64,000 bases of DNA from Sulfolobales archaeon (lineage in GTDB: Archaea; Thermoproteota; Thermoprotei_A; Sulfolobales; AG1): assembly GCA_038867615.1 (NCBI GenBank), contig JAWBYA010000001.1:384001-448000 (forward strand). Reading direction: 5' to 3'. The translations under genes were made by a program, and so were the position numbers. The notes beneath the pieces are model-generated. The model did not search any database and was not told where the DNA came from. It was given only the letters and a program-made list of their open reading frames with translations. Of this stretch, positions 6,602 through 36,509 are shown piece after piece; positions within the stretch are counted from its first letter, which is position 1; each line of letters starts with the position of its first letter.

Positions 6602-6604
6602 ACT

Positions 6605-8820: not shown

Positions 8821-8824
8821 TGAA

Positions 8825-11499: not shown

Positions 11500-12900
11500 C
11501 TAGGCGTTACCCAGGATCCTTTTCACGAGATCCTCGGCTTCTGAGAGGTTATACTCCCTCGCCAGGCCGATCCTGCTGGCCTCGGCAGATCCCTCAGCAT
11601 GGATCATGAGGCCGAGTGCGTAGCCGGCAAGACTGCTCCCCGCAAGCTCCTTAGCGATCTTAAGTACAGCTATCCTTTCCTTCCCATCTACGGCTCCTGC
11701 TAGGTATTTGGCTATGAGGTCGCCGAGCTCTCCCTTGAGATCTTCTTCCGATGGGAGTGTTGAGACTATCCCTCCAACAATGTCTACAAGGGCTTCGAGG
11801 ACTTTTGAGAAGTTTGTGTTGGAGTATAGCTTGGCTATGTTGGTATATAGGGGGTTGGGGATCGCTATACCCTCGTCTATGACAGGGTTTACTGCTGATG
11901 CTATAGCCCCCATCCTCATTATCTCCTTCCATAGAATGATCTCGATGATCCTGCTCCTTATATGTGGGGCTTCAAACACACCGTTAGCCTTAGCTGCGAG
12001 GCTTGCAGCGCCTAGGTAGAGGTTAGCCATAGCAGATCTATATGACACAGCTGTGAATCTATGGTATGTTGCGAAGAGGTTTGCCAGAAGCCCGGCGTAT
12101 TCATGCTCCCTGAACATGAACACCCTATCCCACGGGACAAAGACGTTATCGAATATGGTTAGGGTTTCCAGCTCATAGTCCTTTCTACTTAGGACAGCAC
12201 TGCTATTACCCTCAACCTCGTCTATGGGTCTTACAACCATCCTCAGACCCTTGGTGTTTGCTGGGATGGCGAATGCAACGGCATAGTCTGAATCCTTCGG
12301 CGTCATAGCCCTCGTGGGGATCACTATAATCTCGTCTGAGACGGCTGCTTGGGTTGTGTGGGCTTTGGCGCCTCTAACGATGATTCCATCGCTCCTAACA
12401 TCAACAACCCTTACATATAGATCTGGGTCTCTCTGCTCGTGGGGTCTTTTAGACCTATCACCCTTAACGTCTGTCTGTGCCACTGCTATTGATAGATCGT
12501 TCTTGACTATATATTTATAGTAGTTGATAACCCTCTCGTAATAGTTAGTCCTATACTTAGCATCGATCTTCCTCGATGCTATCATTAGCGCGAAGAGCGC
12601 GTCAGACCCTATAGCCTGCCCTATATTGAAGATCCCGTTGCACTCATAGGTATGCCTATAGATCATTCTATGCCTCTCAAGAAGATCCTCAGAACCTCTG
12701 GGGATTTTATAGTACTTACTTATACTCCCAAGCTCGCTATCGTGGTAAAGCCTATCACCCATTGCGTAGAGCTTTGACAAATGCCTAGCAGCTATGCTTA
12801 GCACAGGATGGCTGGCTATCGAGGTAACCCTAACTCCTCTATACCAGACCTCCCTTCCATCCTCCAACGATGATATATACTCATCCGGGGTTCTAGCCAT
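11500..12900 (-). CDS. 4-hydroxybutyryl-CoA dehydratase / 4-hydroxyphenylacetate 3-hydroxylase family protein (type-2-like, lacks the Fe-S Cys ligands)
   Basis: AQTDVKGDRSKRP, GIIVRGAKAHTT, FDNVFVPWDRVF, HAEGS. Confidence 0.85.
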   Translation of the reverse strand: MARTPDEYISSLEDGREVWYRGVRVTSIASHPVLSIAARHLSKLYAMGDRLYHDSELGSISKYYKIPRGSEDLLERHRMIYRHTYECNGIFNIGQAIGSDALFALMIASRKIDAKYRTNYYERVINYYKYIVKNDLSIAVAQTDVKGDRSKRPHEQRDPDLYVRVVDVRSDGIIVRGAKAHTTQAAVSDEIIVIPTRAMTPKDSDYAVAFAIPANTKGLRMVVRPIDEVEGNSSAVLSRKDYELETLTIFDNVFVPWDRVFMFREHEYAGLLANLFATYHRFTAVSYRSAMANLYLGAASLAAKANGVFEAPHIRSRIIEIILWKEIMRMGAIASAVNPVIDEGIAIPNPLYTNIAKLYSNTNFSKVLEALVDIVGGIVSTLPSEEDLKGELGDLIAKYLAGAVDGKERIAVLKIAKELAGSSLAGYALGLMIHAEGSAEASRIGLAREYNLSEAEDLVKRILGNA

Positions 12901-13136
12901 AGAGATCCCCGGGGGAGTTATTAATGGGGATATTATAAATAAACAACGGCTCGTGGGTATTTCTTTAATAGCTATCTCTTCATAGTTATAGGAGAGCTTT
13001 ATCTCGATTAGCCTGGTATTTAATATTAATGTCGTGTCAGATATGCTTGGATCTCAGATATTGTTAAGCCAAATATGATGTGACAAGGTTTGTTGAAAAA
13101 CCAACATAGCCGCTATAATGTGGAGTGTGTCTAGGC

Positions 13137-13841
13137 TTATACGAATAGGTGTTTTTTGATTATGTCGAGCTCTCCTTCGGCTTTCTCCTTCTCGCCGAAA
13201 TAGACGATCCTCCCGCTGCTCATCACAGAGATCTTTGTCGCTATCCCCATAATGTGCTGGAGTTTTGTTCCAGACTCTATGAGGATTATCGTCATACCCC
13301 TCTTCTTTAGTGTGTCGAGCATGCTGTGGATCCTTTTAACCATAAGCGGCATGACACCTTCTGTTGGCTCGTCTAGGAGGAGGATCTCTGATCCTGTGAG
13401 CAGCGACCTGAGAATAGATACTATCTTGCGCTCGCCCCCGCTTAGGAGATCTGCTCTTCTGTTCAGCAGCCCCTTGATCTCTGGGTAGATATCCTCTAGG
13501 GGTTCTGTGGAGAAGTTCTTTTTACCAGCCGCTAGTCTTAGATTATCCATGACGCTCATTCCCGGGAATAGGCCTGCGTCGTCGGGTACATAGAATATGC
13601 CTCTCTTAGCTATCTCGTGGGGCTTGAGCCTCGATATATCCTCGTCTCTGAATAGGATCTCGCCTCTTCTGGTCACCTCTATACCCATGATTGATTTTAG
13701 CAGTGTTGTCTTGCCAACACCGTTTCTACCTAGCACTGCTACTATGTCGCCGCGATCCACTGGTAGGCTTACCTTGTGGAGTACATGGGCTCTGCCGTAG
13801 AACGCGTCTAGGCTTCTTATAGTTAGGAGGCTACTCGCCAA
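13137..13841 (-). CDS. LivF-type ABC transporter ATP-binding protein
   Basis: Walker A GRNGVGKTT, LSGGE signature, LLLDEPTEG. Confidence 0.9.
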   Translation of the reverse strand: MASSLLTIRSLDAFYGRAHVLHKVSLPVDRGDIVAVLGRNGVGKTTLLKSIMGIEVTRRGEILFRDEDISRLKPHEIAKRGIFYVPDDAGLFPGMSVMDNLRLAAGKKNFSTEPLEDIYPEIKGLLNRRADLLSGGERKIVSILRSLLTGSEILLLDEPTEGVMPLMVKRIHSMLDTLKKRGMTIILIESGTKLQHIMGIATKISVMSSGRIVYFGEKEKAEGELDIIKKHLFV

Positions 13842-14538
13842 GGTAGATCTCCCTCACACGCTTATCTTCAGCAATATCGTTGGGGCTTCCTTCTGCAAGA
13901 ACCTCGCCTCTGTTCATTACAATTATCCTCTTGGATATATTAAACACCACGTCCATGTCGTGCTCGACAAGAACGATCGGTATTTCGGAGCCCAGGCTCT
14001 TTATAACCGAGATCACCTCCTCCTTCTCATTAATATTAAGGCCTGCTGTTGGCTCGTCTAGGAATAATAGCTTGGGTTTTGTTGCAAGGGCTACGGCTAT
14101 CTCAACAACCCTCTGGATGCCGTGGGGTAGTTTGTAGACCTCTAGATCTCTGTATTTTTCTAGATACAGCTTGCTCAAGATACTATCGACATCGGGGTTT
14201 GAGTTCTTACCCCTCGAGAGCGAGGCTATCAATACATTCTGATAGACAGTCAGCGATGTGAATAGGTTTATTAACTGGAATGTTCTCGCTATCCCTAGCT
14301 TCACGATCTTGTGGGGGCTCATGCCGGTTATATCTATGCCCATGAAGAGCACTTTACCCTTATCGGGTTTAAGCCTCCCGGTAATGACATTTATAAGTGT
14401 TGTCTTGCCAGCACCGTTGGGGCCTATTATAGATGTTATTCCGTCGCTGAAGATCGATAGGTTCACGCCGTTTAATGCTGCGAAGTCGCCGAACTTCTTA
14501 ACTACACCCTCAACCCTGAGGATCTCCCTGCCCTCCAT
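13831..14538 (-). CDS. LivG-type ABC transporter ATP-binding protein
   Basis: GPNGAGKTT, ARTFQ, LDEPTAG, VEHDM. Confidence 0.9.
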   Translation of the reverse strand: MEGREILRVEGVVKKFGDFAALNGVNLSIFSDGITSIIGPNGAGKTTLINVITGRLKPDKGKVLFMGIDITGMSPHKIVKLGIARTFQLINLFTSLTVYQNVLIASLSRGKNSNPDVDSILSKLYLEKYRDLEVYKLPHGIQRVVEIAVALATKPKLLFLDEPTAGLNINEKEEVISVIKSLGSEIPIVLVEHDMDVVFNISKRIIVMNRGEVLAEGSPNDIAEDKRVREIYLGE

Positions 14539-15482
14539 ATCCTTTCAACCACCTCCGCGATACCTCCCCTAGATCCGAGAATAAGGCTTGCGAGGATCAA
14601 TCCTAGCATGAGTTGCCATATATCGGCTATTCTTGCTACAAGTGTGGTTATAACTATAAAGATCAGGGATCCCAGGATGGGTCCTGCAAAGAACTTAGAA
14701 CCCCCTATTAGTGTTGCTACAAGGGGCTCTGCACTTGTTGTCCAGTAAGCAAGGTCAGGGGTTATAACTCCCATCAATAGTGCGTAGAGCGCTCCAGCAG
14801 CTCCTGCCACACTTCCCGAGATTATGAATGCAATCATCCTGAGCCTGTATACCGAGTGGCCTGTATATGGCATGAAGTCCTCGTTAACCCCTAGTCCTCT
14901 TATAAGGAGACCATATCTGGATCTATGGAACAGGTATAGCAGGATCAGTATTAATGCGAAGGCTCCGTATATGAAGTAATACCTAGCAACAGGATCCATG
15001 ATGTTTACTATGAAGCCGCTTCTAGGTATGCCTGCTATCCCGTCACTCCCACCTGTAACGCTCCTCCATTTTATGAGGAGTGCGTAGAGGAGCATTCCAA
15101 AGGCTAGTGTGAGCATTGCGAAGTAGATCTTGCTATGCCTCAGTGTTAAGGCGCCAACGGCGAGGGCTAGGATTGCGGATGTTGCTAAAGCCACTAGAAC
15201 GCCTATAAAGGGGTCTCTGATGACGTTTATCGTGAAGAGGGCTAGGCTATAGGCGCCGGCAGCATAGAATAAAGCATGTCCAAAGCTTAGGAGGCCTGCG
15301 TATCCGAAGAGTATGTTGTACGAGAGCGAGAATATAGATAATATCATGAAGAGTGATGATAGGTAGAGGTAAAATGGATCCCTGGTTAGGGGGATTATGA
15401 GTAGTGATATGAGTAATAGGATGATTATATATACCAACGGATCTCTGGGCATCATCTTCACAGGATCATCACCTCTCTCCAA
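14502..15482 (-). CDS. LivM-type ABC permease
   Basis: GYAGLLSFGHALFY, YFAMLTLAF, TGGSDG. Confidence 0.9.
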   Translation of the reverse strand: MERGDDPVKMMPRDPLVYIIILLLISLLIIPLTRDPFYLYLSSLFMILSIFSLSYNILFGYAGLLSFGHALFYAAGAYSLALFTINVIRDPFIGVLVALATSAILALAVGALTLRHSKIYFAMLTLAFGMLLYALLIKWRSVTGGSDGIAGIPRSGFIVNIMDPVARYYFIYGAFALILILLYLFHRSRYGLLIRGLGVNEDFMPYTGHSVYRLRMIAFIISGSVAGAAGALYALLMGVITPDLAYWTTSAEPLVATLIGGSKFFAGPILGSLIFIVITTLVARIADIWQLMLGLILASLILGSRGGIAEVVERIWRAGRSSGLRV

Positions 15483-16332
15483 AGATTCCCTGCGGCCTTA
15501 CTAGTAGCGAGATAGCCATTATGAGGTATATTAGCAGGAGATCTATCTCTGGTAAATAGAGCGTAAAGAGACTCTCCGAAACACCTATTATAATTGACAC
15601 TATATATGCTCCCAGCAGGTTACCCATGCCAGCTATTACCGTGACTATAAAGGCAGATACTATTAAAAAGTCCCCGAGGCCTGGAACCACGGGTGAGAAC
15701 GCGACTATCAACGCTCCCCCCATGCCGGATATAACGCATCCGAGGAAGAATACTGAGGAGTAGATAGTGCTTGTATTTATCCTTAAGGACTCAGCTACCT
15801 CGGGCCTCCTCCACGTAGCCCTCACCTTCAGGCCCCACATGGTGTTGTTGATCAGGATCGCCATCGCTATATATACGGCGAGACCAATGGCTATTATTAG
15901 GATCACGTAGAGGGGGAATACTCTTCCAAATACATTCACGCCCAGGCTAAGGATATCTGGTAGCGGTACAGATACTGGGAGCGTGCCCCAAAATATCTTT
16001 GATAGATCGTTTATTATTAGAGCTACTGCAAAGGTCATCAATAGCTGGTATGTGGACTCCACCTTATAGAGGGGCTTTAGAAGGAACCTCTCGACCAGAA
16101 GTCCTATAAGTCCTACTGAGAGGGCTGAGAGAGGTACGGCTATCCAGAAATTCCCCACGATCGTATAGAATGTGAATGCTATATAGCCTCCGAGCACTAG
16201 AAGCACTGCTTGTGCAAAGTTAACCACCCTTAGCACGCCAAAAATCAAGGTTAAGCCTGAGGCTATTAACCAGTATATGGATGCTCTGTAGAGGCCTGTG
16301 ACTATTTGGTAAAAAATGGGCGATAGATCCAC
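15469..16332 (-). CDS. LivH-type ABC permease
   Basis: SGLTLIFGVLRVVNFA, RPQGIFG. Confidence 0.9.
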   Translation of the reverse strand: MDLSPIFYQIVTGLYRASIYWLIASGLTLIFGVLRVVNFAQAVLLVLGGYIAFTFYTIVGNFWIAVPLSALSVGLIGLLVERFLLKPLYKVESTYQLLMTFAVALIINDLSKIFWGTLPVSVPLPDILSLGVNVFGRVFPLYVILIIAIGLAVYIAMAILINNTMWGLKVRATWRRPEVAESLRINTSTIYSSVFFLGCVISGMGGALIVAFSPVVPGLGDFLIVSAFIVTVIAGMGNLLGAYIVSIIIGVSESLFTLYLPEIDLLLIYLIMAISLLVRPQGIFGER

Positions 16333-16346
16333 CTATGTTCAACCCC

Positions 16347-17732
16347 CTATTCTATGAGGGGGATTTTATAATCAGGCGGCGATCTATAGTATAGAAACGC
16401 TGGGACGGCCCTTATATCTGTTAACAGAGGCATATCACCGCCAACGTTGATGACTTCTCCAGAGACTCTTCCGTAGGGCACCTCATATACGGCTTGGTGA
16501 TCCTGGGGTCTTATCCATCTAACGCCTGCGGGCGATACGATCACCATGCCTTCCATAGCCTTAACGAGGGTATCGAGATCTAGGGTGCCTGTCTTCTCGA
16601 TAGCAGCCTTTAACAGGTATATAGCTGTGTATGTGGTTTCTGAGGAATATGCTGGGAGCCTTCCCCACCTCTTTACGAAGGTATCGACAAACCTCTTGTT
16701 AATATCTGTGGGTGGGTAGAACCATGCGTACCTACCACTAATCCACATGCCGTTGGGTAGCTGTGGATAGGCTTTCCCAAGGCCATAGGCCACATCGACA
16801 GAATATCCCATGGGGTTAAAGACCGCCTTGAGCTTTCTATAAAGGCCGAGCTCTACCGCTTGTTTGTGGAAGGTGACAGCCTCTATGGCCCAGTTGGTTG
16901 TGAAGAGCCCCTCGGCATCTGTCGCCATGACAGCGCTTATCCATTTGCTGAAGTCCGTAGTACCTGGGGAGGGGTTCCACTGCTCTGATACGAACTCTAC
17001 CTCTGGTCTGAGTTTCTTGAGGGTTGTTTTGAAGAATTCCCACGATACTCTTCCGTACTCGTAGTCTGGGTTTATCCCGGCCCACTTCTTAACAGGGAGA
17101 TCCTTTGCTATCCATGCGGCCAGTATTCCGTCCTGATAGACGGGAACCGATACCCTGAATATGTGTTTTATCCCTTGCTTATACACTAGCTCCTCGGTTG
17201 CTCTGTGGGTTGCTGCGTGGGTTAGGATCAGTATCCTGTTCAGCTCGGGCATTATGGGGCCGACTCTCATGGCGTTACCGCTGGAATCGATACCGACGAT
17301 GAAGTCAACTTTCTCTTGCTCAACAAGCTCTCTAGCCTGTTTAACGGCATCGGCGGCCTCGTCTCTTATGGAGAGCTCTATCTTAGCACCCAGGATCCCT
17401 CCCGCGGCGTTTATCTCTTCCGCAGCTAACCTGGCCCCCTGTTCTATAAGTGTCCCATATGTAGCCCAGGTACCGCTTCTAATCCCCATAACACCTATCT
17501 TTATAGTATCTTTTGGTAGCTTGGCGACGGGGGCTTCTGTCTTTGTCACTGTTCTTGTCTCTGTGACTGTTACTGTTGCTCCTCCAGGTCCTGTTTGTGT
17601 TATTGTTGTTGTTTTTAGTACTTCTCTAACCCTCTCGGGTGCTAGTGTGAGTCCTCCTGCGGCTCCTATAGCTAGGCCTACGATCCCGGCTCCTATAATT
17701 TTGATAGCGGATCTCCTACCCTCGTTGGTCAA
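16347..17732 (-). CDS. Branched-chain/aromatic-acid-type ABC substrate-binding protein with a twin-arginine N-terminal anchor and Thr-rich linker
   Basis: N-terminal GRRSAIK followed by a hydrophobic helix; TTTITQT..TVTVTETRTVT linker; EEINAAGGILG, DYEYG, IRPQDHQA. Confidence 0.88.
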   Translation of the reverse strand: MTNEGRRSAIKIIGAGIVGLAIGAAGGLTLAPERVREVLKTTTITQTGPGGATVTVTETRTVTKTEAPVAKLPKDTIKIGVMGIRSGTWATYGTLIEQGARLAAEEINAAGGILGAKIELSIRDEAADAVKQARELVEQEKVDFIVGIDSSGNAMRVGPIMPELNRILILTHAATHRATEELVYKQGIKHIFRVSVPVYQDGILAAWIAKDLPVKKWAGINPDYEYGRVSWEFFKTTLKKLRPEVEFVSEQWNPSPGTTDFSKWISAVMATDAEGLFTTNWAIEAVTFHKQAVELGLYRKLKAVFNPMGYSVDVAYGLGKAYPQLPNGMWISGRYAWFYPPTDINKRFVDTFVKRWGRLPAYSSETTYTAIYLLKAAIEKTGTLDLDTLVKAMEGMVIVSPAGVRWIRPQDHQAVYEVPYGRVSGEVINVGGDMPLLTDIRAVPAFLYYRSPPDYKIPLIE

Positions 17733-17860
17733 TATATATCACCACTAATCCTCTAGATTCGGAATATATATATCATTATAATAGAGGATCTTAATAGATC
17801 ATTGCTATTATTATGTTTATTTTAAGGGCTTTTAGTTAGATAGATATTGGGGAGAATACT

Positions 17861-19483
17861 ATGTTTATGCTTAATATACGGCATATACTTGAGAGGGCGA
17901 GGCTATATTTTGGGAGAAAGGAGGTTGTGTCGAGAACCGATGAGGGGTATGTGAGGTATACGTATAGGGATATGTTTGATAGGGTGTGCAGACTGATCAA
18001 CGCCTTAGAGGGTCTCGGTATAGGGTATGGGGATAGGGTTGCTAGTATGGCTTGGAATACCCATAGGCATCTGGAACTCCACTTCGCTGCCCCGGTAATG
18101 GGTGCTGTGCTCCATACCGTGAATCTGAGGTATAGTCCTGAGGAGATGATCTATACGATCAATAAGGCTGGGGATAGGATTCTCTTCATAGATCCCGACA
18201 TGATACCCACGGTTAGGAAGATCTTGGAGAAGCTTGAGACTGTTGAGAGCGTTGTTATCATGTCCTCCAAGGGTCACGAAGATCTAGGTTTTAACAAGCC
18301 GGTCTATATATACGAAGAGCTTCTAGAGAAATCCAGCAGTGAGTGTAAGTTAAGGGATGTTGATGAGAACTCCCCGGCTGCTATGTGCTTCACGTCAGGG
18401 ACAACGGGCTTTCCTAAGGGTGTTATCTATACCCACAGAGGGATCTTTCTCAGGAGTCTTGCCACATGCCTAGCAGACACCTACGCCCTCTCGGAGAGGG
18501 ATGTTATACTCCACATAGTACCTATGTTCCATATCAGTAGCTGGTTCATGCCATATGCAGCAACACTTGTTGGGGCTAAGCAGGTTCTCCCAGGGCCGAG
18601 GCCTAGGCCCGAGATCATATACGATCTGATCAAGAAGGAGGGCGTGACCGTGAGCGATGGCGCCCCAACCGTGTGGATCGATTTCCTCAACTATCTAAGA
18701 ACCCTTGGTGAGAAGAACATAGAGCCCTTGAGGAAGCTAATAATAGGTGGGTCAGCCCCTCCAAAAGCCCTTATAAAGAGCTACTGGGAGCTCGGTGTTG
18801 AGGTATACCACGCGTGGGGTATGACCGAGACCTATGACTCGGCTATCGCGTTTACCAGGCCTAAGAGCTACCTGGATGATCTCTCTGAGGAGGCTAGGTT
18901 AGGCTTGATTGCTAAGCAGGGTCTCCCATTCCCAGGAATAGAGGTTATGGTTGTGGATGAGAGTAGAAAGCCCCTACCATGGGATGGTAAGTCTATCGGG
19001 GAGCTCTTGATAAGGGGTGCATGGGTTGCTGAGGAGTATTACGGAGATCCTGAGGCTACTAAGAAGTCCTTCGTTAATGGATGGCTCAGAACAGGGGATC
19101 TTGTTACAATAGATGGGGAGGGCTATATAGAGATTGTTGACAGAGTTAAGGATGTGATCAAGAGTGGCGGTGAGTGGATATCCTCGGTGAGGGTGGAGAA
19201 CGAGGCTATGGCCCACCCAGCTGTTCTAGAAGCGGTAGCCATAGCTGTTCCCCACCCGAGGTGGGGCGAGAGACCCCTGCTAATAGTAAAGCTTAGAGAA
19301 GGCTATGCCGGCAAGGTTTCGAAGGAGGATATACTTGGCTTTCTCCGAGAGAGGCTTCTCAAATGGTGGGTTCCGGATGATGTTGTCTTTGTTGACGAGA
19401 TACCCAAGACAGGGACTGGGAAGTTTGATAAGAAGGTTCTGAGGGAGAGGTTTAAAGACTATTACAGGGGTTCTGGTTTATGA
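17861..19483 (+). CDS. Long/medium-chain fatty acid--CoA ligase
   Basis: FTSGTTGFPKG, AWGMTET, RTGD, IKSGGEWISS, PKTGTGKFDK. Confidence 0.92.
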   Translation: MFMLNIRHILERARLYFGRKEVVSRTDEGYVRYTYRDMFDRVCRLINALEGLGIGYGDRVASMAWNTHRHLELHFAAPVMGAVLHTVNLRYSPEEMIYTINKAGDRILFIDPDMIPTVRKILEKLETVESVVIMSSKGHEDLGFNKPVYIYEELLEKSSSECKLRDVDENSPAAMCFTSGTTGFPKGVIYTHRGIFLRSLATCLADTYALSERDVILHIVPMFHISSWFMPYAATLVGAKQVLPGPRPRPEIIYDLIKKEGVTVSDGAPTVWIDFLNYLRTLGEKNIEPLRKLIIGGSAPPKALIKSYWELGVEVYHAWGMTETYDSAIAFTRPKSYLDDLSEEARLGLIAKQGLPFPGIEVMVVDESRKPLPWDGKSIGELLIRGAWVAEEYYGDPEATKKSFVNGWLRTGDLVTIDGEGYIEIVDRVKDVIKSGGEWISSVRVENEAMAHPAVLEAVAIAVPHPRWGERPLLIVKLREGYAGKVSKEDILGFLRERLLKWWVPDDVVFVDEIPKTGTGKFDKKVLRERFKDYYRGSGL

Positions 19484-20250: not shown

Positions 20251-20395
20251 TCCTCTTCTCTCCCCACATTATTTTCGTTCTTCTTAGCACTATGCTGGTT
20301 AGCGAGCCTGCCGAGATCCACGATCCCTACGAGATCATATACGGCAATACCAGGGTTCGGGTTTCATTGCGGTTAGTTCTTTTTAGCATTCTCAC

Positions 20396-20869: not shown

Positions 20870-20956
20870 ACCTAGCTATAGATCGCTGCAGGGTTATTAT
20901 AATCCCATAGCTATTACTTATAAGCCTTGATATATCGCTAAAAACCATGGAGGACT

Positions 20957-24600: not shown

Positions 24601-24710
24601 GCTTATTGATGATATGGGGGATTTATCATGACCCTCAAAAGGCTGGGGTGTGTGATATAGCTGTAATGATCCTTGTATGGGTTATCCTTAAAAAAAGATT
24701 AGACTGTTCT

Positions 24711-25889: not shown

Positions 25890-25892
25890 TCG

Positions 25893-26744: not shown

Positions 26745-26754
26745 TCTAGATACC

Positions 26755-30063: not shown

Positions 30064-30067
30064 ATTC

Positions 30068-30952
30068 TCACCTCCTTACAAAAGGCAGATCCAGGGTTTC
30101 TCCGTTAATCATCATGGGTTCCTTTACGGGTTCGTATTCTCCTCTCTCAACTGCTGCTATGAATCTCCTCACAATGTTGTTGAACTCCCTAGCCCTCTCT
30201 ATATTAACCACATGCCCGGCTCCTTTGAATATTATTAGTGTTGAGTTCTTGATCTTTGAGTATAGCTTGAACGCGTTGGATAGGGGGACTACTCTATCAG
30301 CCTCTCCATGTATTATTAGCACCGGGCATTCTATCCTCGATACAGAGGCTGAGGCGTCGAAACCCAGTATAGCCATGGTCTGGTTCATGTAGGCATCATA
30401 GGGTTGTGGCTCTCTAACTCTAAGATCTATTAGTTTCTCGAAGAGATCCTTGTTGCTCTCGATCCATGTTTTTGATAGTGCGTAGCTCATCTTATACCTA
30501 TATAGATCCTTCTCATCCTTAATATGGGGAGGCGGGGGTCCATACATGGCTTTCAGCGTCTCATCGGGGGGTCTCTCTATATCTTTACCCCCGTGATGTG
30601 TAGCCACGAGTATTAGTGATCTAACCCTCTCTGGGTATTTCAGGGCGAACTGCTGTGCTATCATCCCTCCCATCGATACACCGAGTATGTGTGCCGATGC
30701 TACACTTAGGTTGTCGAGCACTGTTTTTAGATCTTCGGCGAAGAGATCCATGGTGTAGGGGTATTGCGGCTTATCAGACTTCCCAACGCCTCGGTTGTCA
30801 AATGCTATTACCATATGGTCTCTGGATAGATCCTCGATCTGTAGGATCCACATCCACATAGCGTATCCAAGCCCTTCAACGAGGGTTAGTGGGGGGCCTG
30901 AGCCCCTCACTTCATAGTAGATCCTGGCGTCACGGGATACTACGTATGGCAT
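30068..30952 (-). CDS. Alpha/beta hydrolase (enol-lactone hydrolase/esterase-like)
   Basis: DNRGVG, GVSMGG nucleophile elbow, HGEADRVVP, GAGH. Confidence 0.9.
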   Translation of the reverse strand: MPYVVSRDARIYYEVRGSGPPLTLVEGLGYAMWMWILQIEDLSRDHMVIAFDNRGVGKSDKPQYPYTMDLFAEDLKTVLDNLSVASAHILGVSMGGMIAQQFALKYPERVRSLILVATHHGGKDIERPPDETLKAMYGPPPPHIKDEKDLYRYKMSYALSKTWIESNKDLFEKLIDLRVREPQPYDAYMNQTMAILGFDASASVSRIECPVLIIHGEADRVVPLSNAFKLYSKIKNSTLIIFKGAGHVVNIERAREFNNIVRRFIAAVERGEYEPVKEPMMINGETLDLPFVRR

Positions 30953-31960
30953 TCATCCCCACCTCAGTACGGTGGCTCCCCATAAGAAACCGGTACCCCC
31001 TGATGCTAGGACCACTACTGAGCCGTCCTTGACGAGGCCTTTTTTGATCCCTATATCCAGTCCTATAATCATGTCACTACTCTGTGTGTGTCCATAGTCC
31101 TCGAGATATGGTGCTTTTGCCTCCTCTAGGCCGAGTTCTCTCACAATCTCTCTGTGGAAGCTTCTCTTCATATGGTTGATCACCAAGAGATCTACGTCCT
31201 TAACCGTATACCCACTCCTATCTAGGGCTTCTCTTATTACTCTAACGAAGTTCTCTTTGCTTGTTCTTGAGAGGTCGCTTCTCACCTGGTCCTTATCGAT
31301 CAAGCTATCGAAGTAAGGCCTCTCTATGTATTCCGGGTTCTTGTTATCTCTGAATATAATAGCGCCGAGGGACTTTACAACAACCATGTTCCAGAACCTC
31401 CCATCGCTTATAAAAGAGCTCTCAAGCACTCTGTTCCTCGTATATGATCTAGATACTACTACTGCTGAGGCGCCGTCAGCAAAGTCGGAGATCCAGGTGG
31501 TGTTGGGGTTCTTATAATTAACTAGGTAGGATTCCTTAGATGCTGCTACTAATAATATGTTCTCGGCAAGATCACTGATCCTCTTGGCTATGGCGAGCCC
31601 CACAACATGGCCAACACACATAGCGACTATGTCAAAGGCGAAGGCGTTCTTAGCTCCAAGGGCATCCTGGATTCTTGTTGACATCATCCACACGCCATAG
31701 TCTTTAAACTCGCTACCAACATAGAGAATAGCCCTTATATCGTCGGGCCCGATCCCTAGTTTCTCTGATCCCTCTATGGCGTTTGCGACAGCCTTTATAG
31801 CCATCTCAGAGGGCATTTCATGGTGATCACTGATCCTCTTGATCCTCCACCCCTGTTTCTCCTCGATAACCTCTTTCGGGATCCCGGATACTCTTGATAT
31901 TTCATGGCTAGTAATTACACGCTCTGGCAGGTATATTCCATAACTAACTATCCCAATCAT
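30953..31960 (-). CDS. 3-oxoacyl-synthase III (FabH)-like condensing enzyme with a Cys-His-His triad
   Basis: GIYLPERVI, AFDIVAMC (catalytic Cys), FADGASAVV, INHMK, YGHTQSSD, SGGTGFLWGATVLRW. Confidence 0.85.
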   Translation of the reverse strand: MIGIVSYGIYLPERVITSHEISRVSGIPKEVIEEKQGWRIKRISDHHEMPSEMAIKAVANAIEGSEKLGIGPDDIRAILYVGSEFKDYGVWMMSTRIQDALGAKNAFAFDIVAMCVGHVVGLAIAKRISDLAENILLVAASKESYLVNYKNPNTTWISDFADGASAVVVSRSYTRNRVLESSFISDGRFWNMVVVKSLGAIIFRDNKNPEYIERPYFDSLIDKDQVRSDLSRTSKENFVRVIREALDRSGYTVKDVDLLVINHMKRSFHREIVRELGLEEAKAPYLEDYGHTQSSDMIIGLDIGIKKGLVKDGSVVVLASGGTGFLWGATVLRWG

Positions 31961-31978
31961 GAAAAATAACTCCCTACA

Positions 31979-31991
31979 TAGTGACTCACTA
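31979..31991. promoter_or_regulatory. Palindromic candidate operator TAGTGA-C-TCACTA
   Basis: Perfect 6-bp inverted repeat between the TATA element (minus strand AAAAAGCTTTATAT) and the start of the FabH-like operon. Confidence 0.55.
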
Positions 31992-32062
31992 GTAAGAATA
32001 TAAAGCTTTTTCTCTCTAGACTACATTAATATTTATAAATAGTGGTTCATAGTATATAGATA

Positions 32063-33646
32063 TTGATGGGTATGCAGCCAAACCTTCCTGGGCAGTATAT
32101 TCAGGCTAAAGATATACTCGAAGAGGCTGAGAGGATATACTCTTCGAGAACAGCGGTTATCGACTATGTGTCAGGCTATAAATATAGCTATAGTGATCTT
32201 GGGGGAAGATCTTCGAAAATAGCCGGATTTCTCCAGGACCTCTCGCTAAAGCCTGGTGATAGGATCGCTTATATGCTCACAAACAGGATCGAGTGTATAG
32301 ATCTATTTAAGGTATCAGGAATGCTGGGACTCATACTTGTACCGCTTAACTGGAGGCTATTGGGGAGCGAGCTTAGAAGCATTATCAGGAATACCGCTCC
32401 TAAAGTGATATTCTATGAATCGGTATTCAGAGATCTCGCGGCAGAGGCTCTTAAAGGCATCAATGGGATCTTTAGGGTGGTTATCGACGGCGAACCAAGA
32501 GAGGGTGAGTATAGCTATGAGGAAGCCCTTAAGGCAGGAGGCATCAAGACCCCGAGGAAGGTTTCTCTTGAGGAGCCGCGGATGATCCTATATACTGGCG
32601 GGACTACAGGGATTCCCAAAGGTGCTGTGATATCTAATAGACAGATCCTCTTTAACATATTCTCAGAGATTCTGACATGGAGGTTAAGAGAGGATCACAG
32701 GACAGTCGCTCTGCTACCTTTATTCCACACCGGGGGATGGAATCTATTGACTCTGCCTCTTCTGGCCAGAGGAGGCATGATTTATATGATAAGGAGATTC
32801 GATCCAAAGCTATTCCTTGAGATCATAGAGACAGAGAAAGGGCCTTTCACGATATTCGGCGTTCCTACTATGTATTATATGATTTCTAAGCATGGGGACT
32901 TTAGAGAAGCGTCTTTCAGGAACGTTGAGTGGATGATGAGCGGGGGCTCCCATATAGATAGGAAGATCTTGGAGGAGTTCTGGGCGAAAGGAGTGAAGAT
33001 GGCTCAGGGTTATGGGAGCACTGAGGCGGGACCTAATAATCTAACACCTCCTATACAGGATCTATCTCTCGACGATATGAAGACGAGGTGGAGGAGCGTT
33101 GGTAAGCCATTCGCCTTTAACGAAGTATTTGTAGTTGATGATAACGGGAACATACTGGGTCCTAATCAGTATGGGGAGCTGGTGTTCTGCGGCCCTCTAG
33201 TCTTCTCAGGATACTGGGGAATGCCTGAGGAAACAAAGCTTGTGCTCAGGGATGGATGTGTATATACCGGTGATATTGGTTTCTACGATGATGAGGGTTA
33301 TTTCTATGTAGTTGATAGGAAGAAGGATATTATAAAGAGCGGCGGGGAGCAGGTATACCCGAGGGAGATAGAGGAGCTCGTGCTTCAACACCCAGCCGTT
33401 GAGGACTGTGCAGTTATACCTGTTCCTGATGAGAAGTGGGGAGAGGTTCCCAAGCTGGTTGTTAAGTTGAGAAGCGGTTTGGGGATCACTAAGCACGAGA
33501 TCCTGGGCTTCCTCGAAGGGAAGATAGCTAGGTATAAGATACCAAAATATGTAGCGGTAGTTGATGAGATACCTAGAAACCCTGCGGGGAAGATCCTAAA
33601 GAGGGTTCTGATCGAGAAGCACGGGTCCCCGATCGATGAGATCTAG
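32063..33646 (+). CDS. Acyl-CoA synthetase (AMP-forming)
   Basis: YTGGTTGIPKG, LPLFHTGG, QGYGSTE, YTGD, KSGGE, PRNPAGKILK. Confidence 0.92.
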   Translation: MMGMQPNLPGQYIQAKDILEEAERIYSSRTAVIDYVSGYKYSYSDLGGRSSKIAGFLQDLSLKPGDRIAYMLTNRIECIDLFKVSGMLGLILVPLNWRLLGSELRSIIRNTAPKVIFYESVFRDLAAEALKGINGIFRVVIDGEPREGEYSYEEALKAGGIKTPRKVSLEEPRMILYTGGTTGIPKGAVISNRQILFNIFSEILTWRLREDHRTVALLPLFHTGGWNLLTLPLLARGGMIYMIRRFDPKLFLEIIETEKGPFTIFGVPTMYYMISKHGDFREASFRNVEWMMSGGSHIDRKILEEFWAKGVKMAQGYGSTEAGPNNLTPPIQDLSLDDMKTRWRSVGKPFAFNEVFVVDDNGNILGPNQYGELVFCGPLVFSGYWGMPEETKLVLRDGCVYTGDIGFYDDEGYFYVVDRKKDIIKSGGEQVYPREIEELVLQHPAVEDCAVIPVPDEKWGEVPKLVVKLRSGLGITKHEILGFLEGKIARYKIPKYVAVVDEIPRNPAGKILKRVLIEKHGSPIDEI

Positions 33647-33653
33647 TGACCTC

Positions 33654-35207
33654 TCAAGATCCCTGTTGCTTTAGAAGCTCTGAGAACTTTTTCTTCAAAT
33701 ATACATAATCCACCTTACCCACCGCGGTTTTCGGGATTTCGTGGACTATCCACACATACTTAGGGATCTTATACCCAGCTATCCTTCCTCTCAGAAAATC
33801 CCTTATAGTCTGGGGATCTATTTGATAGCCTGCTTTGGGCTTTATAGCTGCTGCTACAGCCTCTCCCCATTTCTCGTCAGGGACTCCAAAGACGGCTACC
33901 TCCTCTACTCCTGGATGCTCCCTAATACGCTCTTCCACCTCAAATGGGTATATGTTCTCCCCACCGCTTTTTATCATGAACTTCTTCCTCTCGACGAAAT
34001 AGAAATGCCCATCCTCATCCTTGATGAACAGATCTCCTGTTCTCACCCACCCATCTTCTGTGAACGCTTCTTTTGTTTCCTCAGGCCTTTTCCAATATCC
34101 TGAGAAGGTTATAGGGCCTCTCACGAGTAGCTCGCCCACTTCGCCCGGCCTGGCTTCTGTTCCATCATCCTTAACGATCTTTAGCTCGGCGAAGAGGCTC
34201 TGCTTTCCAACACTCATTGGCTTCTTCTCCATATCCTCTGGTGGTGTGTAGAGGAGGTTGGGGCCTGCCTCTGTTAGTCCGTATCCTTGGAAGTACCTGA
34301 CACCTTTATCCCAGTAGATCTTTACAAGGCTATAGGGGCTCATGCCCCCTCCGCTTTTGAAGAACTTAATATTCTTGAAGCTTGTGTCTTTGAACTTGGG
34401 GGATTTTGTTAACATGTAGAAAGCTGTTGGTACCGCTATCACTAATGTGCATCTCTCTTTCTCTATAATGTCTAGCGCCTCTTCAGGATCGAATCTCTTT
34501 GTAATAATAATCCTCCCCCCGATCATGTAGAGGGGTATTGTTATCACATGCCAGCCTCCTGTGTGAAATAGTGGGAAGAAGAGAGGAGCTATATCGTCTC
34601 TTGTAAGGCTCCAGCTGATTATTGTGTTTATCGCATTCCATATAACCTGCCTGTAGGGTATCATAGCAGCCTTAAGAGTACCTGTAGTTCCCCCAGTGTA
34701 TAGAAGCATGCTTATATCGCTACCCCCGACATTCTCCCTTCTATAGTCCCTCTGGATCTGTCTCTTATAGATCCCTCTGAGGGTCTCTATCCTCTCTATT
34801 AACGGTCTGTGGGAGCTAATTTTTAAAGCCTGTTCTAAGAGATCCTTGAGCTCTTCTTGATAGAATATTAGAGAGGGCTCCACATCATCTATCATAAACG
34901 CTAGATCCTTAGGCGTGGCTCTCCAGCTCAGTGGAGCCAGTATTGCTCCTTTTTTAATGGTTGCCAGGTAGATGAAGATATACTCAGCGTTGTTATACGA
35001 TAGAACCGCGACTCTATCCCCCTTCCCAACCCCTATCTCTTCAAGTATGGAGGCGATATTATTAGCAGCCTTAGCAGCGTCGCGGTAGCTATACTCCTCC
35101 CTAGATCCCCATGAGTAGTCAACAATAGCTATTCTATCAGGATATAGTCTTGCCCCGACCTCGGCTAGGTCGGGGACTGGGTGTTCATAAGCATTATCGT
35201 GATTCAT
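33654..35207 (-). CDS. Acyl-CoA synthetase (AMP-forming), paralogue of 32063-33646
   Basis: YTGGTTGTLK, PLFHTGGW, QGYGLTEAGPN, RTGD, KSGGENIYP, PKTAVGK. Confidence 0.92.
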   Translation of the reverse strand: MNHDNAYEHPVPDLAEVGARLYPDRIAIVDYSWGSREEYSYRDAAKAANNIASILEEIGVGKGDRVAVLSYNNAEYIFIYLATIKKGAILAPLSWRATPKDLAFMIDDVEPSLIFYQEELKDLLEQALKISSHRPLIERIETLRGIYKRQIQRDYRRENVGGSDISMLLYTGGTTGTLKAAMIPYRQVIWNAINTIISWSLTRDDIAPLFFPLFHTGGWHVITIPLYMIGGRIIITKRFDPEEALDIIEKERCTLVIAVPTAFYMLTKSPKFKDTSFKNIKFFKSGGGMSPYSLVKIYWDKGVRYFQGYGLTEAGPNLLYTPPEDMEKKPMSVGKQSLFAELKIVKDDGTEARPGEVGELLVRGPITFSGYWKRPEETKEAFTEDGWVRTGDLFIKDEDGHFYFVERKKFMIKSGGENIYPFEVEERIREHPGVEEVAVFGVPDEKWGEAVAAAIKPKAGYQIDPQTIRDFLRGRIAGYKIPKYVWIVHEIPKTAVGKVDYVYLKKKFSELLKQQGS

Positions 35208-35220
35208 TAGTGAATCACCG
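35199..35220. promoter_or_regulatory. Candidate operator TAGTGAATCAC within the inverted repeat GTGATTCA-N4-TGAATCAC
   Basis: Matches the 31979 palindrome at 10 of 13 positions; covers the RBS and start codon of the 33654-35207 ligase, in the spacer shared with the TetR gene. Confidence 0.5.
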
Positions 35221-35291
35221 TTTAATAATACATAGAGAAGAGGGATAAATTTTTACACACGTTATCTCTAATATTAGTTAGGAAGCCCAGT

Positions 35292-36509
35292 ATGCCTCGT
35301 AGGAGTAGCGCTAATATGGCTAGGCAGAAAATAATGGAGTCTTTCTCGAAGTTGGCACTTAAGAAAAGCTATAAAGATATATCGCTTAAGGAGATCTCAG
35401 AGCTGGCAGGGATCTCAGTTCCTTCTTTCTATACTTATTTCGATTCAAAAGAGGATATGCTTAGATACTATATAGACTATTCCCTCGAGCATCTAGAAAA
35501 CTTGATAAACTCACACCTCGGTCAAGCGGTCAGTGCTAGTATAACGATCAGGTATCTTCTACACATACTCTCCACACTTCTCGAGGACAGGATCCTAACA
35601 GCTTTTCACAGAGTCTTTCGTGAATACGAGTTTGTGGAAAAGAGCCTTGCCAAGCTATACTATAAGAGGCTCTTTGACCTGCTTGGGAGCTTTATTGGGG
35701 AGAGGCTCTATGAGCTCAGCTACCAGGATCCAAGGATAATATCGCTAGCCATAGTTGGGAGCTCTAGTTTCATATACCTTTTCAGAAAGATCTTCAACCT
35801 AGAGGGGAGCATTTTGATCGACATAGAGGTTTCGGGAGACCTTCTGCTTAAGGGGTTAGGGTCTCAGAGGGTTCCTGAGGTACTTCCGATCGAGAATCCA
35901 CCAGATCTCGTGGAGCTCATGGATAGATATGGAGCGCTTGAGGTTCCAGGGATGCCCAAGGGCAAGAAGCCTATCTTGATGGCGACGCTCGATATCCTTA
36001 GCTCTAAGAGTTTTAAGGATACCAAGATCTATGAGATCATGGATAGAGCTGGCTATTCTGTAGGCTCCTTCTACAAGATCTATAGGAGTAAGGAGGAGCT
36101 CTTAGAGGATCTAGTGATCATCATAGGGAGAACTCTGAGAAAGTATCTCTCTGAGTGTATAGAGGGTATAGAGGATCCCGCCGAAATCGAGGCCAAGGGA
36201 TCGGCATGCTTTCTCGGGTTTGTTAGGAAGAATGAGAACATCTATAGGATCGTTAGGGAGGCAGCATATATAGATCTTAGCATTGCTATGAAATACCACA
36301 TACCATTCCTAAAAAGATATGCAGAAAGACTAAGTGCAGAGGCGGAAAGAGGGCTTATAAGAACATTCAATACAGAATCACTAGCAATAGCCCTCATGGG
36401 GATAAACCACACAGCTGGTATAGAGGTTCGAATGTTGGAAGGTATGGATGAAAGAAAAGTTCTAGAAGGGCTAGCACGAATATATGCTAAAGGTGTTCTT
36501 AGCGCGTAA
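35292..36509 (+). CDS. Tandem (double) TetR/AcrR-family transcriptional regulator
   Basis: Two TetR HTH units: SLKEISELAGISVPSFYTYFDSKEDM and KIYEIMDRAGYSVGSFYKIYRSKEEL, each followed by a ligand-binding domain. Confidence 0.88.
   Translation: MPRRSSANMARQKIMESFSKLALKKSYKDISLKEISELAGISVPSFYTYFDSKEDMLRYYIDYSLEHLENLINSHLGQAVSASITIRYLLHILSTLLEDRILTAFHRVFREYEFVEKSLAKLYYKRLFDLLGSFIGERLYELSYQDPRIISLAIVGSSSFIYLFRKIFNLEGSILIDIEVSGDLLLKGLGSQRVPEVLPIENPPDLVELMDRYGALEVPGMPKGKKPILMATLDILSSKSFKDTKIYEIMDRAGYSVGSFYKIYRSKEELLEDLVIIIGRTLRKYLSECIEGIEDPAEIEAKGSACFLGFVRKNENIYRIVREAAYIDLSIAMKYHIPFLKRYAERLSAEAERGLIRTFNTESLAIALMGINHTAGIEVRMLEGMDERKVLEGLARIYAKGVLSA

Follow-up and report, generated by a model that had tools for sequence, protein, structure and literature searches.

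Gene content and extent of the locus

The locus raises the question of what a KAS III (FabH)-like enzyme does when it is encoded beside a transporter, a serine hydrolase and acyl-CoA ligases, in a genome in which no ACP gene was found. An earlier note on this DNA had described the locus as one island of 25 kb centred on the enzyme. The window, that is the whole stretch of 64,000 nucleotides analysed, comes from a hot-spring archaeon. Pfam and NCBIfam scans recovered all genes named in that note, at the coordinates given below.

The KAS III-like gene (30953-31960; 335 aa, Pfam ACP_syn_III and ACP_syn_III_C) is the first gene of an operon on the minus strand, as had been proposed. It is followed by an alpha/beta serine hydrolase (30068-30952; 294 aa, Pfam Abhydrolase_1) and by the second LIV/HAAT-type ABC importer of the locus (24711-30063), whose five genes were assigned with Pfam as a binding protein of 612 aa (28225-30063), two ATPases (27464-28228 and 26755-27480) and two permeases (25893-26744 and 24711-25889). 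Throughout the run that starts with the KAS III-like gene and ends with the last permease, intergenic spacings lie between -17 and +10 nt, so that neighbours overlap or directly adjoin. A MaoC-type (R)-specific enoyl-CoA hydratase/dehydratase (24148-24600, minus strand; 150 aa, Pfam MaoC_dehydratas, 119 bits) begins 110 nt past the last permease, and after a further 273 nt follows a fusion of an N-terminal 3-hydroxyacyl-CoA dehydrogenase (HAD) and a C-terminal enoyl-CoA hydratase (ECH) part (21949-23874, minus strand; 641 aa, Pfam 3HCDH_N, 3HCDH and ECH_1). On the other side, the AMP-forming acyl-CoA ligase Lig2 (32063-33646, plus strand; Pfam) is divergent from the KAS III-like gene, a second AMP-forming acyl-CoA ligase, Lig3 (33654-35207, minus strand; Pfam), lies next to it, and a tandem TetR-family regulator of 405 aa with two TetR_N stretches (35292-36509, plus strand) is divergent from Lig3.

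The left part of the locus contains a homologue of the HpaB/4-hydroxybutyryl-CoA dehydratase family (11500-12900, minus strand; Pfam/NCBIfam, nearest solved structure 1U8V, 243 bits), the first LIV ABC system (13137-17732, minus strand; Pfam/NCBIfam), an AMP-ligase of the long-chain acyl-CoA synthetase type (17861-19483, plus strand; match to T. thermophilus 1ULT, 536 bits) and a FabG-like SDR (19480-20250, plus strand; NF004746, 376 bits against a cut-off of 320). In other genomes, the genes of 11500-20250 are unlinked to the KAS III-like gene, with the exception of the SDR in one locus (L017). The single island therefore did not hold up, since only about 24148-36509 accompanies the KAS III-like gene elsewhere. 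This conserved unit comprises MaoC, the LIV importer, the hydrolase, the KAS III-like enzyme, two ligases and the double TetR, and the left part is a separate set of 4-hydroxybutyrate and fatty-acid genes. Elsewhere, the HAD-ECH fusion stands beside MaoC only in the near-identical locus L013, and neither in L012 nor at any further locus; it is likely a downstream step outside the conserved module.

The KAS III-like enzyme

The protein passes the cut-off of NF005308 (PRK06840; 343 bits, cut-off 315) and stays below that of the FabH model TIGR00747 (144 against 292 bits). In HMMER alignments to FabH structures, C115, H263 and H291, the last in the motif YGHTQ, align with the Cys, His and Asn of FabH, which bears out the Cys-His-His triad read earlier from the sequence. 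The triad is invariant across 28 family members, as are Lys265 and Asp296. The AF2 model (pLDDT 88) has the FabH fold, with a TM score of 0.82 and 21-28% identity to FabH (B. subtilis FabHA, 8VD9; E. coli, 1HN9). While FabH's Pfam domains and Gly-rich loop are kept, along with its nucleophilic Cys and first His, the FabH residue Asn274 is replaced by His, an invariant Lys lies two residues past the first His, an invariant Asp lies five residues past the second, and some 30 residues at 190-225 form an insertion that is modelled with low confidence. The setting also differs from that of FabH, as the gene lies in an uptake operon instead of among fab genes and the host genome has no ACP or carboxyltransferase matches. 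Among KAS enzymes, a full Cys-His-His triad is characteristic of the decarboxylating KAS I/II types.

Full-length family matches occur in 5 of 401 Thermoproteota genomes, a rare and patchy spread. Contigs from a hot-spring RNA library, 90-97% alike, cover 25.9-31.9 kb, and one spans the junction of hydrolase and KAS III-like gene; the evidence for expression is weak because these are contigs only and DNA carry-over is possible. A literature search found no published paper on the family or the module, in line with the earlier suggestion of an undescribed system.

Conservation of the module

The earlier note had asked whether homologues of the KAS III-like gene keep the same neighbours. They do so in 25 genome loci from Thermoproteota, Thermoplasmata and two bacterial phyla, where the gene is linked with the hydrolase, an AMP-ligase and the LIV importer, and the linkage recurs in 80 bacterial-type metagenome loci, many of them on short contigs. 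Among the genome loci, the hydrolase adjoins the KAS III-like gene in 20, the contigs of the remaining five ending on that side, the ABC system is linked in 19, and a ligase of the Lig2 or Lig3 type is found in 24. A Lig3-like gene is present in 23 loci, beside the module in 22 and about 8 kb off in L027, and Lig3 is the ligase that accompanies the KAS III-like gene across phyla; Lig2 is conserved in the Thermoproteota loci L012-L015, L017 and L018. In the metagenome loci, matches were obtained for the ABC system (43), the ligase (41, and 27 of the 34 loci of 9 kb or longer), the hydrolase (30) and an SDR (29), and the usual order is ABC, KAS, hydrolase, SDR, ligase. Thermoplasmata have a compact operon of binding protein, two permeases, two ATPases, hydrolase, KAS, ligase, MaoC and TetR. 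This linkage in genomes and metagenomes supports a conserved, ACP-free, transporter-linked module that would act on CoA thioesters.

One partner of the module varies: archaea have MaoC (13 of the 25 loci) where bacteria have an SDR similar to FabG/acetoacetyl-CoA reductase (NF004198, 303-325 bits; cut-off 296). (R)-3-Hydroxyacyl thioesters are the substrates of both families. The structural relatives of the window's MaoC are PDB 1Q6W, the hydratase domain of PaaZ and PhaJ, and it retains the Asp and His of what we take to be the hydratase motif (SGDFYSLH).

Absent genes and the probable level of substrate entry

A Pfam scan of 25 ORFs in and beside the island yielded no match to thiolase, ACAD or PP-binding, as the earlier note had reported for thiolase, acyl-CoA dehydrogenase and ACP. 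In the whole genome, which is 94% complete, there are five thiolase and six ACAD matches, all outside the window, and none to PP-binding. An ACAD was found in 0 of the 105 loci and a canonical thiolase beside the KAS III-like gene in three; these three argue against a simple replacement of thiolase by the KAS III-like enzyme, which the earlier note had considered. Given the MaoC or SDR partner and the scarcity of ACAD and thiolase at the loci, the entry point for substrates would be the 3-hydroxy or enoyl stage.

A search for the acyl-CoA carboxyltransferase PF01039 gave no match in the genome of this archaeon, which is 94% complete, or in any of five other Thermoproteota carriers, but did so in three of five Thermoplasmata carriers. 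Thus 8 of the 11 carrier genomes yielded no such gene and with it no usual source of malonyl-CoA. Neither an enoyl reductase nor an OleD-type gene was found in the archaeal modules.

The hydrolase and its relation to PHB depolymerases

The hydrolase has a GVSMGG box and a predicted triad Ser93-Asp219-His247 that is invariant in 18 orthologues. Its top NCBIfam match is PcaD (151 bits, under the cut-off of 256), and its nearest solved structures are the family V esterases 6EB3 and 8V16 (157 bits), the latter being Ade1, for which quorum-quenching activity was reported (10.1101/2020.12.16.421545). Against NF050089, the model of intracellular short-chain-length PHA depolymerases, it scores 96 bits where the cut-off is 300. 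In the bacterial branch, in contrast to the archaeal one, 28 of 32 KAS-adjacent hydrolases match this Bacillus-type PhaZ model at E<=1e-60, and the hydrolase of L046 reaches 441 bits. Among the archaeal hydrolases, which lie outside the model, only eight of the 18 reach E<=1e-20, and their best match is PcaD-like and below cut-off; the link to PHB therefore depends on the bacterial branch. PhaZ of B. thuringiensis had itself been annotated as a 3-oxoadipate enol-lactonase and has a G-W-S-M-G box (PMC7236355), and the window hydrolase resembles it in its PcaD-like best match and its GVSMGG box.

Of the PHB breakdown pathway, the archaeal module provides the (R)-hydratase MaoC, and the window adds the crotonyl-CoA hydratase/dehydrogenase fusion. 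The described pathway gives a KAS III-like enzyme no role, and the importer implies a substrate from outside, unlike the intracellular PHB system. We know of no PHA synthase in these archaea.

Ligases, importer and regulator

Among solved structures, both ligases are closest to the fatty-acyl/feruloyl-CoA synthetase 8WEU/8WEV (Lig2 298 bits, Lig3 315 bits). Lig3 also matches FadD13 (256 bits) and MatB (244 bits) and reaches 321 bits on the malonyl-CoA synthase model, whose cut-off is 558. In 4 of the 105 loci a short-chain-type CoA-transferase takes the place of the ligase, with a best match to butyryl-CoA:acetate of 313 bits, below cut-off. The binding protein is closest to 3NND/3N0X of R. 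palustris and to 3I09, among solved structures, and 3I09 was reported with acetoacetate bound (10.1101/251942). For the C-terminal half of the TetR the nearest solved structure is 6EL2 (65.6 bits), the lauroyl-CoA-bound form of FadR from S. acidocaldarius (PMC6449355). The double TetR recurs in L012-L014, L016 and L017, and in the Thermoplasmata loci L030 and L034 a single TetR follows MaoC.

Proposed route and alternative readings

We tentatively read the unit as a repressor-controlled module for the import and catabolism of a small (R)-3-hydroxy acid, free or as (oligo)ester, with 3-hydroxybutyrate or PHB fragments as the leading candidates. The binding protein and ABC system would import the substrate, the serine hydrolase would cleave ester bonds and a ligase would form the CoA thioester. 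MaoC could then dehydrate the (R)-3-hydroxyacyl-CoA to enoyl- or crotonyl-CoA, which the adjacent HAD-ECH fusion would convert to 3-oxoacyl-CoA or acetoacetyl-CoA, and cleavage of this product would give acetyl-CoA. The TetR would act as a FadR-like acyl-CoA sensor that derepresses the module genes. The KAS III-like enzyme may catalyse thiolytic cleavage, ester-to-CoA transfer or condensation; it most likely acts on CoA thioesters without ACP, in a thiol-dependent cleavage or transfer step, which could be a retro-Claisen thiolysis of 3-oxoacyl-CoA or a reaction that moves a hydroxyacyl group from an ester to CoA.

Of the two pathways considered in the earlier note, the catabolism of an ester or lactone without ACAD fits the evidence best, given the 0 of 105 ACAD count, the MaoC or SDR partner and the PHB-depolymerase neighbours in bacteria. 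The latter, together with the short-chain CoA-transferases, support a 3-hydroxybutyrate or PHB substrate, and the FadR-like TetR and the likeness of the binding protein to an acetoacetate-bound one support hydroxy-acid catabolism. Against PHB stand the ligases, which resemble medium-/long-chain and feruloyl-CoA synthetases and not known activators of 3-hydroxybutyrate or acetoacetate, and the regulator, as S. acidocaldarius FadR responds to longer acyl-CoAs (PMC6449355). Against a cleavage role stands the complete Cys-His-His triad, familiar from KAS I/II condensation; to our knowledge, no thiolytic enzyme of the KAS III fold has been described.

These same ligase scores suit a broader reading that we consider unlikely, namely a generic module for another already unsaturated or hydroxylated carboxylic acid or ester, such as hydroxycinnamate/phenylpropanoid esters, lactones or medium-chain 3-hydroxy fatty acids. 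The KAS III-like enzyme would then cut the last C-C bond, in an unusual 3-oxoacyl-CoA, e.g. aroylacetyl-CoA. The locus linkage serves this reading equally well, already unsaturated substrates need no ACAD, and the hydrolase is nearest to promiscuous esterases and scores as PcaD-like and meta-cleavage-hydrolase-like. However, the module has no aromatic-specific feature, downstream aromatic-CoA genes are not linked at the examined loci, and the bacterial branch is associated with members of the PHB-depolymerase family and with short-chain CoA-transferases.

Less probable still is an ACP-independent condensing pathway, in which the enzyme would couple the acid, once imported and activated with CoA, to another thioester, either decarboxylatively, with malonyl-CoA made from imported malonate by a MatB-like ligase, or non-decarboxylatively like OleA, and the hydrolase would release or decarboxylate the beta-keto product. 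It accommodates the intact triad and Gly-rich loop, the Lig3 scores on the malonyl-CoA synthase model and MatB, and the nearby SDR and MaoC, and a preprint notes that in S. acidocaldarius a decarboxylating ketothiolase has not been identified (10.1101/2024.07.05.601840). The (R)-specific chain-building route of the earlier note, which belongs here, is nevertheless disfavoured by the carboxyltransferase not found in this genome (94% complete) or in any of the five other Thermoproteota carriers, the missing enoyl reductase, the catabolic hallmarks of importer, FadR-like repressor and PHB-depolymerase neighbour, and a distribution unlike that of a core lipid pathway.

Relation to described systems

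OleABCD (olefin/beta-lactone) and PqsA/PqsD/PqsE (alkylquinolone) combine the folds of a KAS III-like enzyme, a hydrolase and an ANL-family ligase. The same three folds sit together in the module, which counts for condensation and for Ole- or PqsADE-like logic, but the likeness is one of parts only: OleA is neither among the sequence matches at E<=1e-10 nor among the fold matches listed, OleD is missing from the archaeal loci, the ligases score as acyl-CoA synthetases, and importer and repressor are included.

The FadR-regulated lipid and fatty-acid cluster of S. acidocaldarius, Saci_1103-1126, resembles the island in its clustered esterases, acyl-CoA ligases, HAD-ECH, FabG-like SDR and TetR sensor, the latter being the nearest solved structure to the window's regulator. 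That cluster has ACADs and thiolases and lacks both a KAS III-like gene and an ABC importer, the reverse of the island (PMC6449355), and the window's regulator differs as a tandem double TetR. The CoA-dependent fatty-acid synthase of the same organism uses a ketothiolase/DUF35 pair, the reductase Saci_1104, the MaoC Saci_1085 and the enoyl reductase Saci_1115, and the preprint on it contains neither "KAS" nor "condensing" and does not mention KAS-type enzymes (10.1101/2024.07.05.601840). The window shares its ACP-free CoA-ester chemistry, with an NF004746-type SDR and MaoC, whereas the ketothiolase/DUF35 pair and enoyl-CoA reductase were not found among the island ORFs scanned and the SDR lies outside the conserved module. 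With a FabH-like enzyme at its centre for which our search found no published description, the module appears to be spread over this archaeon, other archaea and many bacteria.

Gene organisation and conservation of the module

The genes named in the earlier note for the island (11500-36509) were all confirmed by an ORF map together with Pfam and NCBIfam matches. At its centre is an operon on the minus strand, in which the KAS III (FabH)-like gene (31960 to 30953) is followed by an alpha/beta hydrolase (30952 to 30068), a LIV-type binding protein of 612 aa, two ATPases and two permeases, the last of which ends at 24711. The spacings from the KAS-like gene through the last permease are -17 to +10 nt, so that the genes abut or overlap. 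On the same strand, MaoC (24600 to 24148) lies 110 nt beyond the last permease, and the gene 273 nt beyond MaoC encodes a fusion of HAD (N-terminal) with ECH (C-terminal) (23874 to 21949). The AMP-ligase Lig2 (32063-33646) points away from the KAS-like gene and is convergent with the AMP-ligase Lig3 (35207 to 33654), from which a 405-aa double TetR_N protein (35292-36509) is in turn divergent. The left part of the island holds a FabG-like SDR, a third ligase, another LIV system and an HpaB-family gene.

Unrelated genes flank the island. On one side is a tetrapyrrole biosynthesis cluster (5807-9895) with TP_methylase, porphobilinogen deaminase, class III aminotransferase and ALA dehydratase, and on the other a complete-looking histidine utilisation set (39116-44928) with urocanase, an imidazolonepropionase-like amidohydrolase, an arginase-family (formiminoglutamase-like) protein and histidine ammonia-lyase. 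The window also contains an amidase and a formamidase/acetamidase as a divergent pair (46843-49307), a toxin-antitoxin-like nucleotidyltransferase/HEPN pair (55568-56475) and a lone nucleotidyltransferase gene (10740-11465) at the island border; a HepT/nucleotidyltransferase gene sits within one related copy of the module (L017).

A scan seeded with a nine-sequence alignment yielded 25 genome loci carrying homologues of the KAS-like gene, whose neighbours were located by tblastn with the proteins of the window. The hydrolase is directly adjacent to the KAS-like gene in 20 of these loci, the contig ending on that side in the other five, and a ligase is linked in 24, the ABC genes in 19, MaoC in 13 and the double TetR in five (L012-L014, L016, L017). 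The linkage to ligase, hydrolase and ABC genes, on which the earlier note had staked the idea of a distinct system, is therefore conserved. The module is real and conserved, but the 25-kb island, proposed as one unit, stands only in part: 24148-36509 is conserved together with the KAS-like gene and the remaining left part is not, as its 4HBD homologue, first LIV system, ligase and SDR are unlinked in the other loci, except for the SDR in L017. Behind MaoC, the HAD-ECH fusion recurs in L013, the locus with 97% identity, and not in L012.

Gene order varies by phylum, with binding protein, permeases, ATPases, hydrolase, KAS, ligase, MaoC and TetR as the arrangement in Thermoplasmata. A second scan, seeded with bacterial members, gave 80 metagenome loci with the usual order ABC, KAS, hydrolase, SDR and ligase; a ligase is present in 27 of the 34 metagenome loci of at least 9 kb, as counted among those listed. 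Bacterial modules with two KAS-like paralogues also occur (L069:8995-10999, L040:4012-11000), and in L065, L069 and L046 the place of TetR is taken by a large regulator, some 1075 aa long, that has TPR and BTAD domains.

Two of the genes outside the conserved unit were examined for their relatives. Among solved structures, the HpaB-family gene (11500-12900), which adjoins a LIV importer of its own, scores 243 bits with 1U8V and 232 bits with 6VJR, both 4-hydroxybutyryl-CoA dehydratases, as opposed to 173 bits with HpaB, and the third ligase (17861-19483) matches the long-chain acyl-CoA synthetase of T. thermophilus with 536 bits. The two together suggest that the wider island gathers routes meeting at crotonyl-CoA or acyl-CoA. 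Judged from sequence, the 4HBD homologue, the ligases and the HAD-ECH fusion may be reminiscent of archaeal CO2-fixation cycles, in their 4-hydroxybutyrate half, or of a pathway that breaks down 4-hydroxybutyrate.

The KAS III-like enzyme and its family

The KAS-like protein belongs to NF005308 (PRK06840, an unnamed "3-oxoacyl-ACP synthase"), with 343 bits over residues 1-335 against a cut-off of 315 (344 bits in the genome-wide profile search), and falls short of the FabH model TIGR00747 with 144 bits against a cut-off of 292. At E<=1e-5 it contains only ACP_syn_III Pfam domains; the ketoacyl-synt domains of KAS I/II are absent, and there is no Pfam match to Thiolase_N or Thiolase_C, the domains of the thiolases with their two catalytic Cys. 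The Cys-His-His triad read earlier from the sequence was upheld by HMMER alignment with solved FabH structures, in which C115, H263 and H291 (YGHTQ) align with the Cys, His and Asn of FabH. The enzyme thus differs from the Cys-His-Asn triad of FabH in the replacement of Asn by His291, and shares the Cys-His-His triad of KAS I/II (FabB/FabF) in composition only. C115, H263, M264, K265, H291 and D296 are invariant in 28 members from Thermoproteota, Thermoplasmata, Chloroflexota and Bacillota. In a MAFFT alignment of the best 124 full-length representatives, the position of the FabH Asn is occupied by His in 82 and by Asn in 37; the middle triad column was left uninterpreted because the FabH-type rows are one residue off register. 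Ser replaces the nucleophilic Cys, with both His kept, in six of the 124 representatives and, in the wider family set, in the B. cereus group (P0102, P0111), a combination also seen in acyltransferase-type or decarboxylase-type KAS relatives.

The AlphaFold model (pLDDT 88) has the FabH fold, with a Foldseek TM of 0.82 to FabHA of B. subtilis. A family-specific insertion relative to FabH, at residues about 190-225 (window about 31285-31390), is poorly modelled (pLDDT 50-61); in FabH, the active-site entrance is formed at this place. Matches in the ESM Atlas were to generic "3-oxoacyl-ACP synthase" clusters only, and fused, longer proteins containing the enzyme were not found at E<=1e-20, which is weak evidence. 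A predicted complex of the KAS-like protein and the hydrolase, each entered as an alignment, scored 0.00 against a mark of 0.32, which speaks neither for nor against binding.

The nearest records to the locus are a Sulfolobales MAG (97%) and "Desulfurococcaceae archaeon AG1" (96%). A library of 1.84 billion protein representatives gave 66 matches at E<=1e-30. Full-length matches (at least 290 bits) occur in five of 401 sampled Thermoproteota genomes, three of them exceeding the cut-off, and none of 14 control genomes rose above the NF005308 cut-off. The remaining Thermoproteota matches are partial, N-terminal and at most 73 bits, and are presumably HMG-CoA synthases because of the HMGS matches in the NCBIfam search. 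In a quick maximum likelihood tree (IQ-TREE, with SH-aLRT support only), the 19 archaeal sequences form a single clade (SH-aLRT 100), within which the 8 rows of Thermoproteota and the 11 of Thermoplasmata each make up a monophyletic group (SH-aLRT 99), both beside bacterial groups.

Evidence for a proposed breakdown of 3-hydroxy acids or esters

The earlier note had left a choice between chain building and catabolism of an ester or lactone lipid. The ester-catabolism reading is favoured by the lack of ACAD, the (R)-specific partner enzymes and the type of hydrolase found in bacteria. In tblastn searches of all 105 genome and metagenome loci, the genome's own ACAD found no counterpart in any locus, and thiolase appeared in only three (L021, L078, L091). 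The variable partner in the module is MaoC in archaea and an SDR in bacteria; the latter passes the FabG model (303-325 bits, cut-off 296) and comes close on the acetoacetyl-CoA reductase model (247-271 bits). Since the MaoC and FabG-like SDR families both act on (R)-3-hydroxyacyl thioesters, such a thioester is the likely hub intermediate. In the MaoC of the window, the hydratase motif retains its Asp and His. At four loci, a CoA-transferase with butyryl-CoA:acetate CoA-transferase as its best match stands in place of the ligase.

The most telling catabolic pointer is provided by the bacterial neighbours: of the 32 hydrolases beside bacterial KAS-like homologues, 28 hit the model of the intracellular short-chain-length PHA depolymerase, NF050089, at E<=1e-60, and that of L046 reaches 441 bits (cut-off 300). 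The hydrolase of the window, with 95.7 bits against the same cut-off, is not a member, and only eight of 18 archaeal orthologues match the model at E<=1e-20. It has a GVSMGG box and a Ser93-Asp219-His247 triad that is invariant in its orthologues, and its best NCBIfam match is PcaD, below the cut-off. PhaZ of B. thuringiensis is described as annotated 3-oxoadipate enol-lactonase and as having a G-W-S-M-G box (PMC7236355). The solved relatives of the 612-aa binding protein include 3I09, which is described as acetoacetate-bound (10.1101/251942).

Contigs of a hot-spring RNA library, which are 90-97% alike and come from a relative, cover 25.9-31.9 kb. One of 416 nt spans the junction of hydrolase and KAS-like gene. 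As evidence of expression this is weak, because the sequences are contigs and the library may contain DNA. The ligases, TetR, SDR and HAD-ECH have no cover, from which no conclusion can be drawn given that these are contigs.

The regulator (35292-36509) consists of two TetR units in tandem fusion, a covalent pseudo-dimer, which five Thermoproteota loci share in the same position, and Thermoplasmata have a single TetR. Its closest solved structure is 6EL2 (65.6 bits), the acyl-CoA-responsive FadR of S. acidocaldarius (PMC6449355). A 6-1-6 palindrome (TAGTGANTCACTA / TAGTGACTCACTA) occurs in perfect form at 31979-31991, upstream of the KAS-like gene and 19 nt from its start, and with two mismatches at 35208-35220 before Lig3, where it overlaps a GGTGA ribosome-binding-like motif. 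It is conserved only in part at related loci and, with five occurrences in the window against 3.3 expected, is not above chance; it was rejected as a TetR operator and is not counted as evidence.

Chain building and related pathways

The chain-building reading was not supported. The genome of the window (2.22 Mb, 94% complete) has no match to ACP (PP-binding, PF00550) or to the carboxyltransferase PF01039, though at this completeness a missing match is not proof that the gene is lacking. No enoyl reductase lies within the conserved module, which has a binding-protein-dependent importer and a TetR, nearest to FadR, at its start or end. PF01039 is also absent from all five other Thermoproteota carriers and present in three of five Thermoplasmata carriers, and therefore the usual malonyl-CoA source is lacking in eight of 11 carriers. 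The fatty-acid synthase of S. acidocaldarius uses a ketothiolase/DUF35 pair, and a decarboxylating ketothiolase is stated not to have been identified there (10.1101/2024.07.05.601840). Among 25 ORFs scanned here, neither such a pair nor the NADPH enoyl-CoA reductase of the archaeal CoA-dependent synthase was found, and the thiolase-like genes of the genome lie on other contigs or far from the island. The KAS-like enzyme could look like the missing decarboxylating condensing enzyme, but its gene context is against it. A relationship to OleABCD found no support, as no OleA was among the PDB sequence matches at E<=1e-10 or the fold matches listed, and an OleD-type (3beta-HSD-type) SDR is found in none of the archaeal loci, one adjoining the bacterial L027 copy.

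Proposed route and significance

In the catabolic route that we propose, a substrate would be taken up, its ester hydrolysed and the product ligated to CoA. MaoC would then dehydrate the (R)-3-hydroxyacyl-CoA to enoyl-CoA, which the HAD-ECH fusion would hydrate and oxidise, and cleavage of the product would give acetyl-CoA, while TetR would sense acyl-CoA and the genes would be derepressed. The KAS-like enzyme alone is left without a step in this route. Among the roles named for it, thiolysis of 3-oxoacyl-CoA comes first, though it is less likely than not; that the enzyme moves ester-bound hydroxyacyl groups onto CoA is rather unlikely, condensation or decarboxylation still more so, and the rest of our expectation goes to some other function. 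It is a doubtful but conceivable proposition that the Cys-His-His NF005308 family and its relatives form a new class of the thiolase superfamily, catabolic on CoA thioesters. As an "ester thiolase", such an enzyme could conserve energy by passing the ester-bound 3-hydroxyacyl units of PHB-type oligomers straight to CoA; as a retro-Claisen enzyme, it could serve an ACAD-free, (R)-specific breakdown route. If so, hot-spring and soil archaea, which are not known PHB makers, would feed on bacterial polyester debris.

No paper on the family or the module was found in the searched literature, which mostly excludes subscription journals, and "PRK06840" occurs in none of its papers. The module is apparently undescribed and most likely catabolic, not a form of archaeal fatty-acid synthesis. 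The KAS-like gene lies in an uptake operon of a genome in which no ACP or malonyl-CoA source was detected, and the annotation "3-oxoacyl-ACP synthase", used everywhere for the family, is very probably wrong. [quoted passage not shown] If the enzyme should instead be the thiolytic or acyl-transfer step in the catabolism of hydroxy acids or PHB fragments, polyester turnover would gain a missing enzyme and the Bacillus-type PHB depolymerase an unrecognised partner, and archaea would prove to be scavengers of storage polymers made by bacteria.
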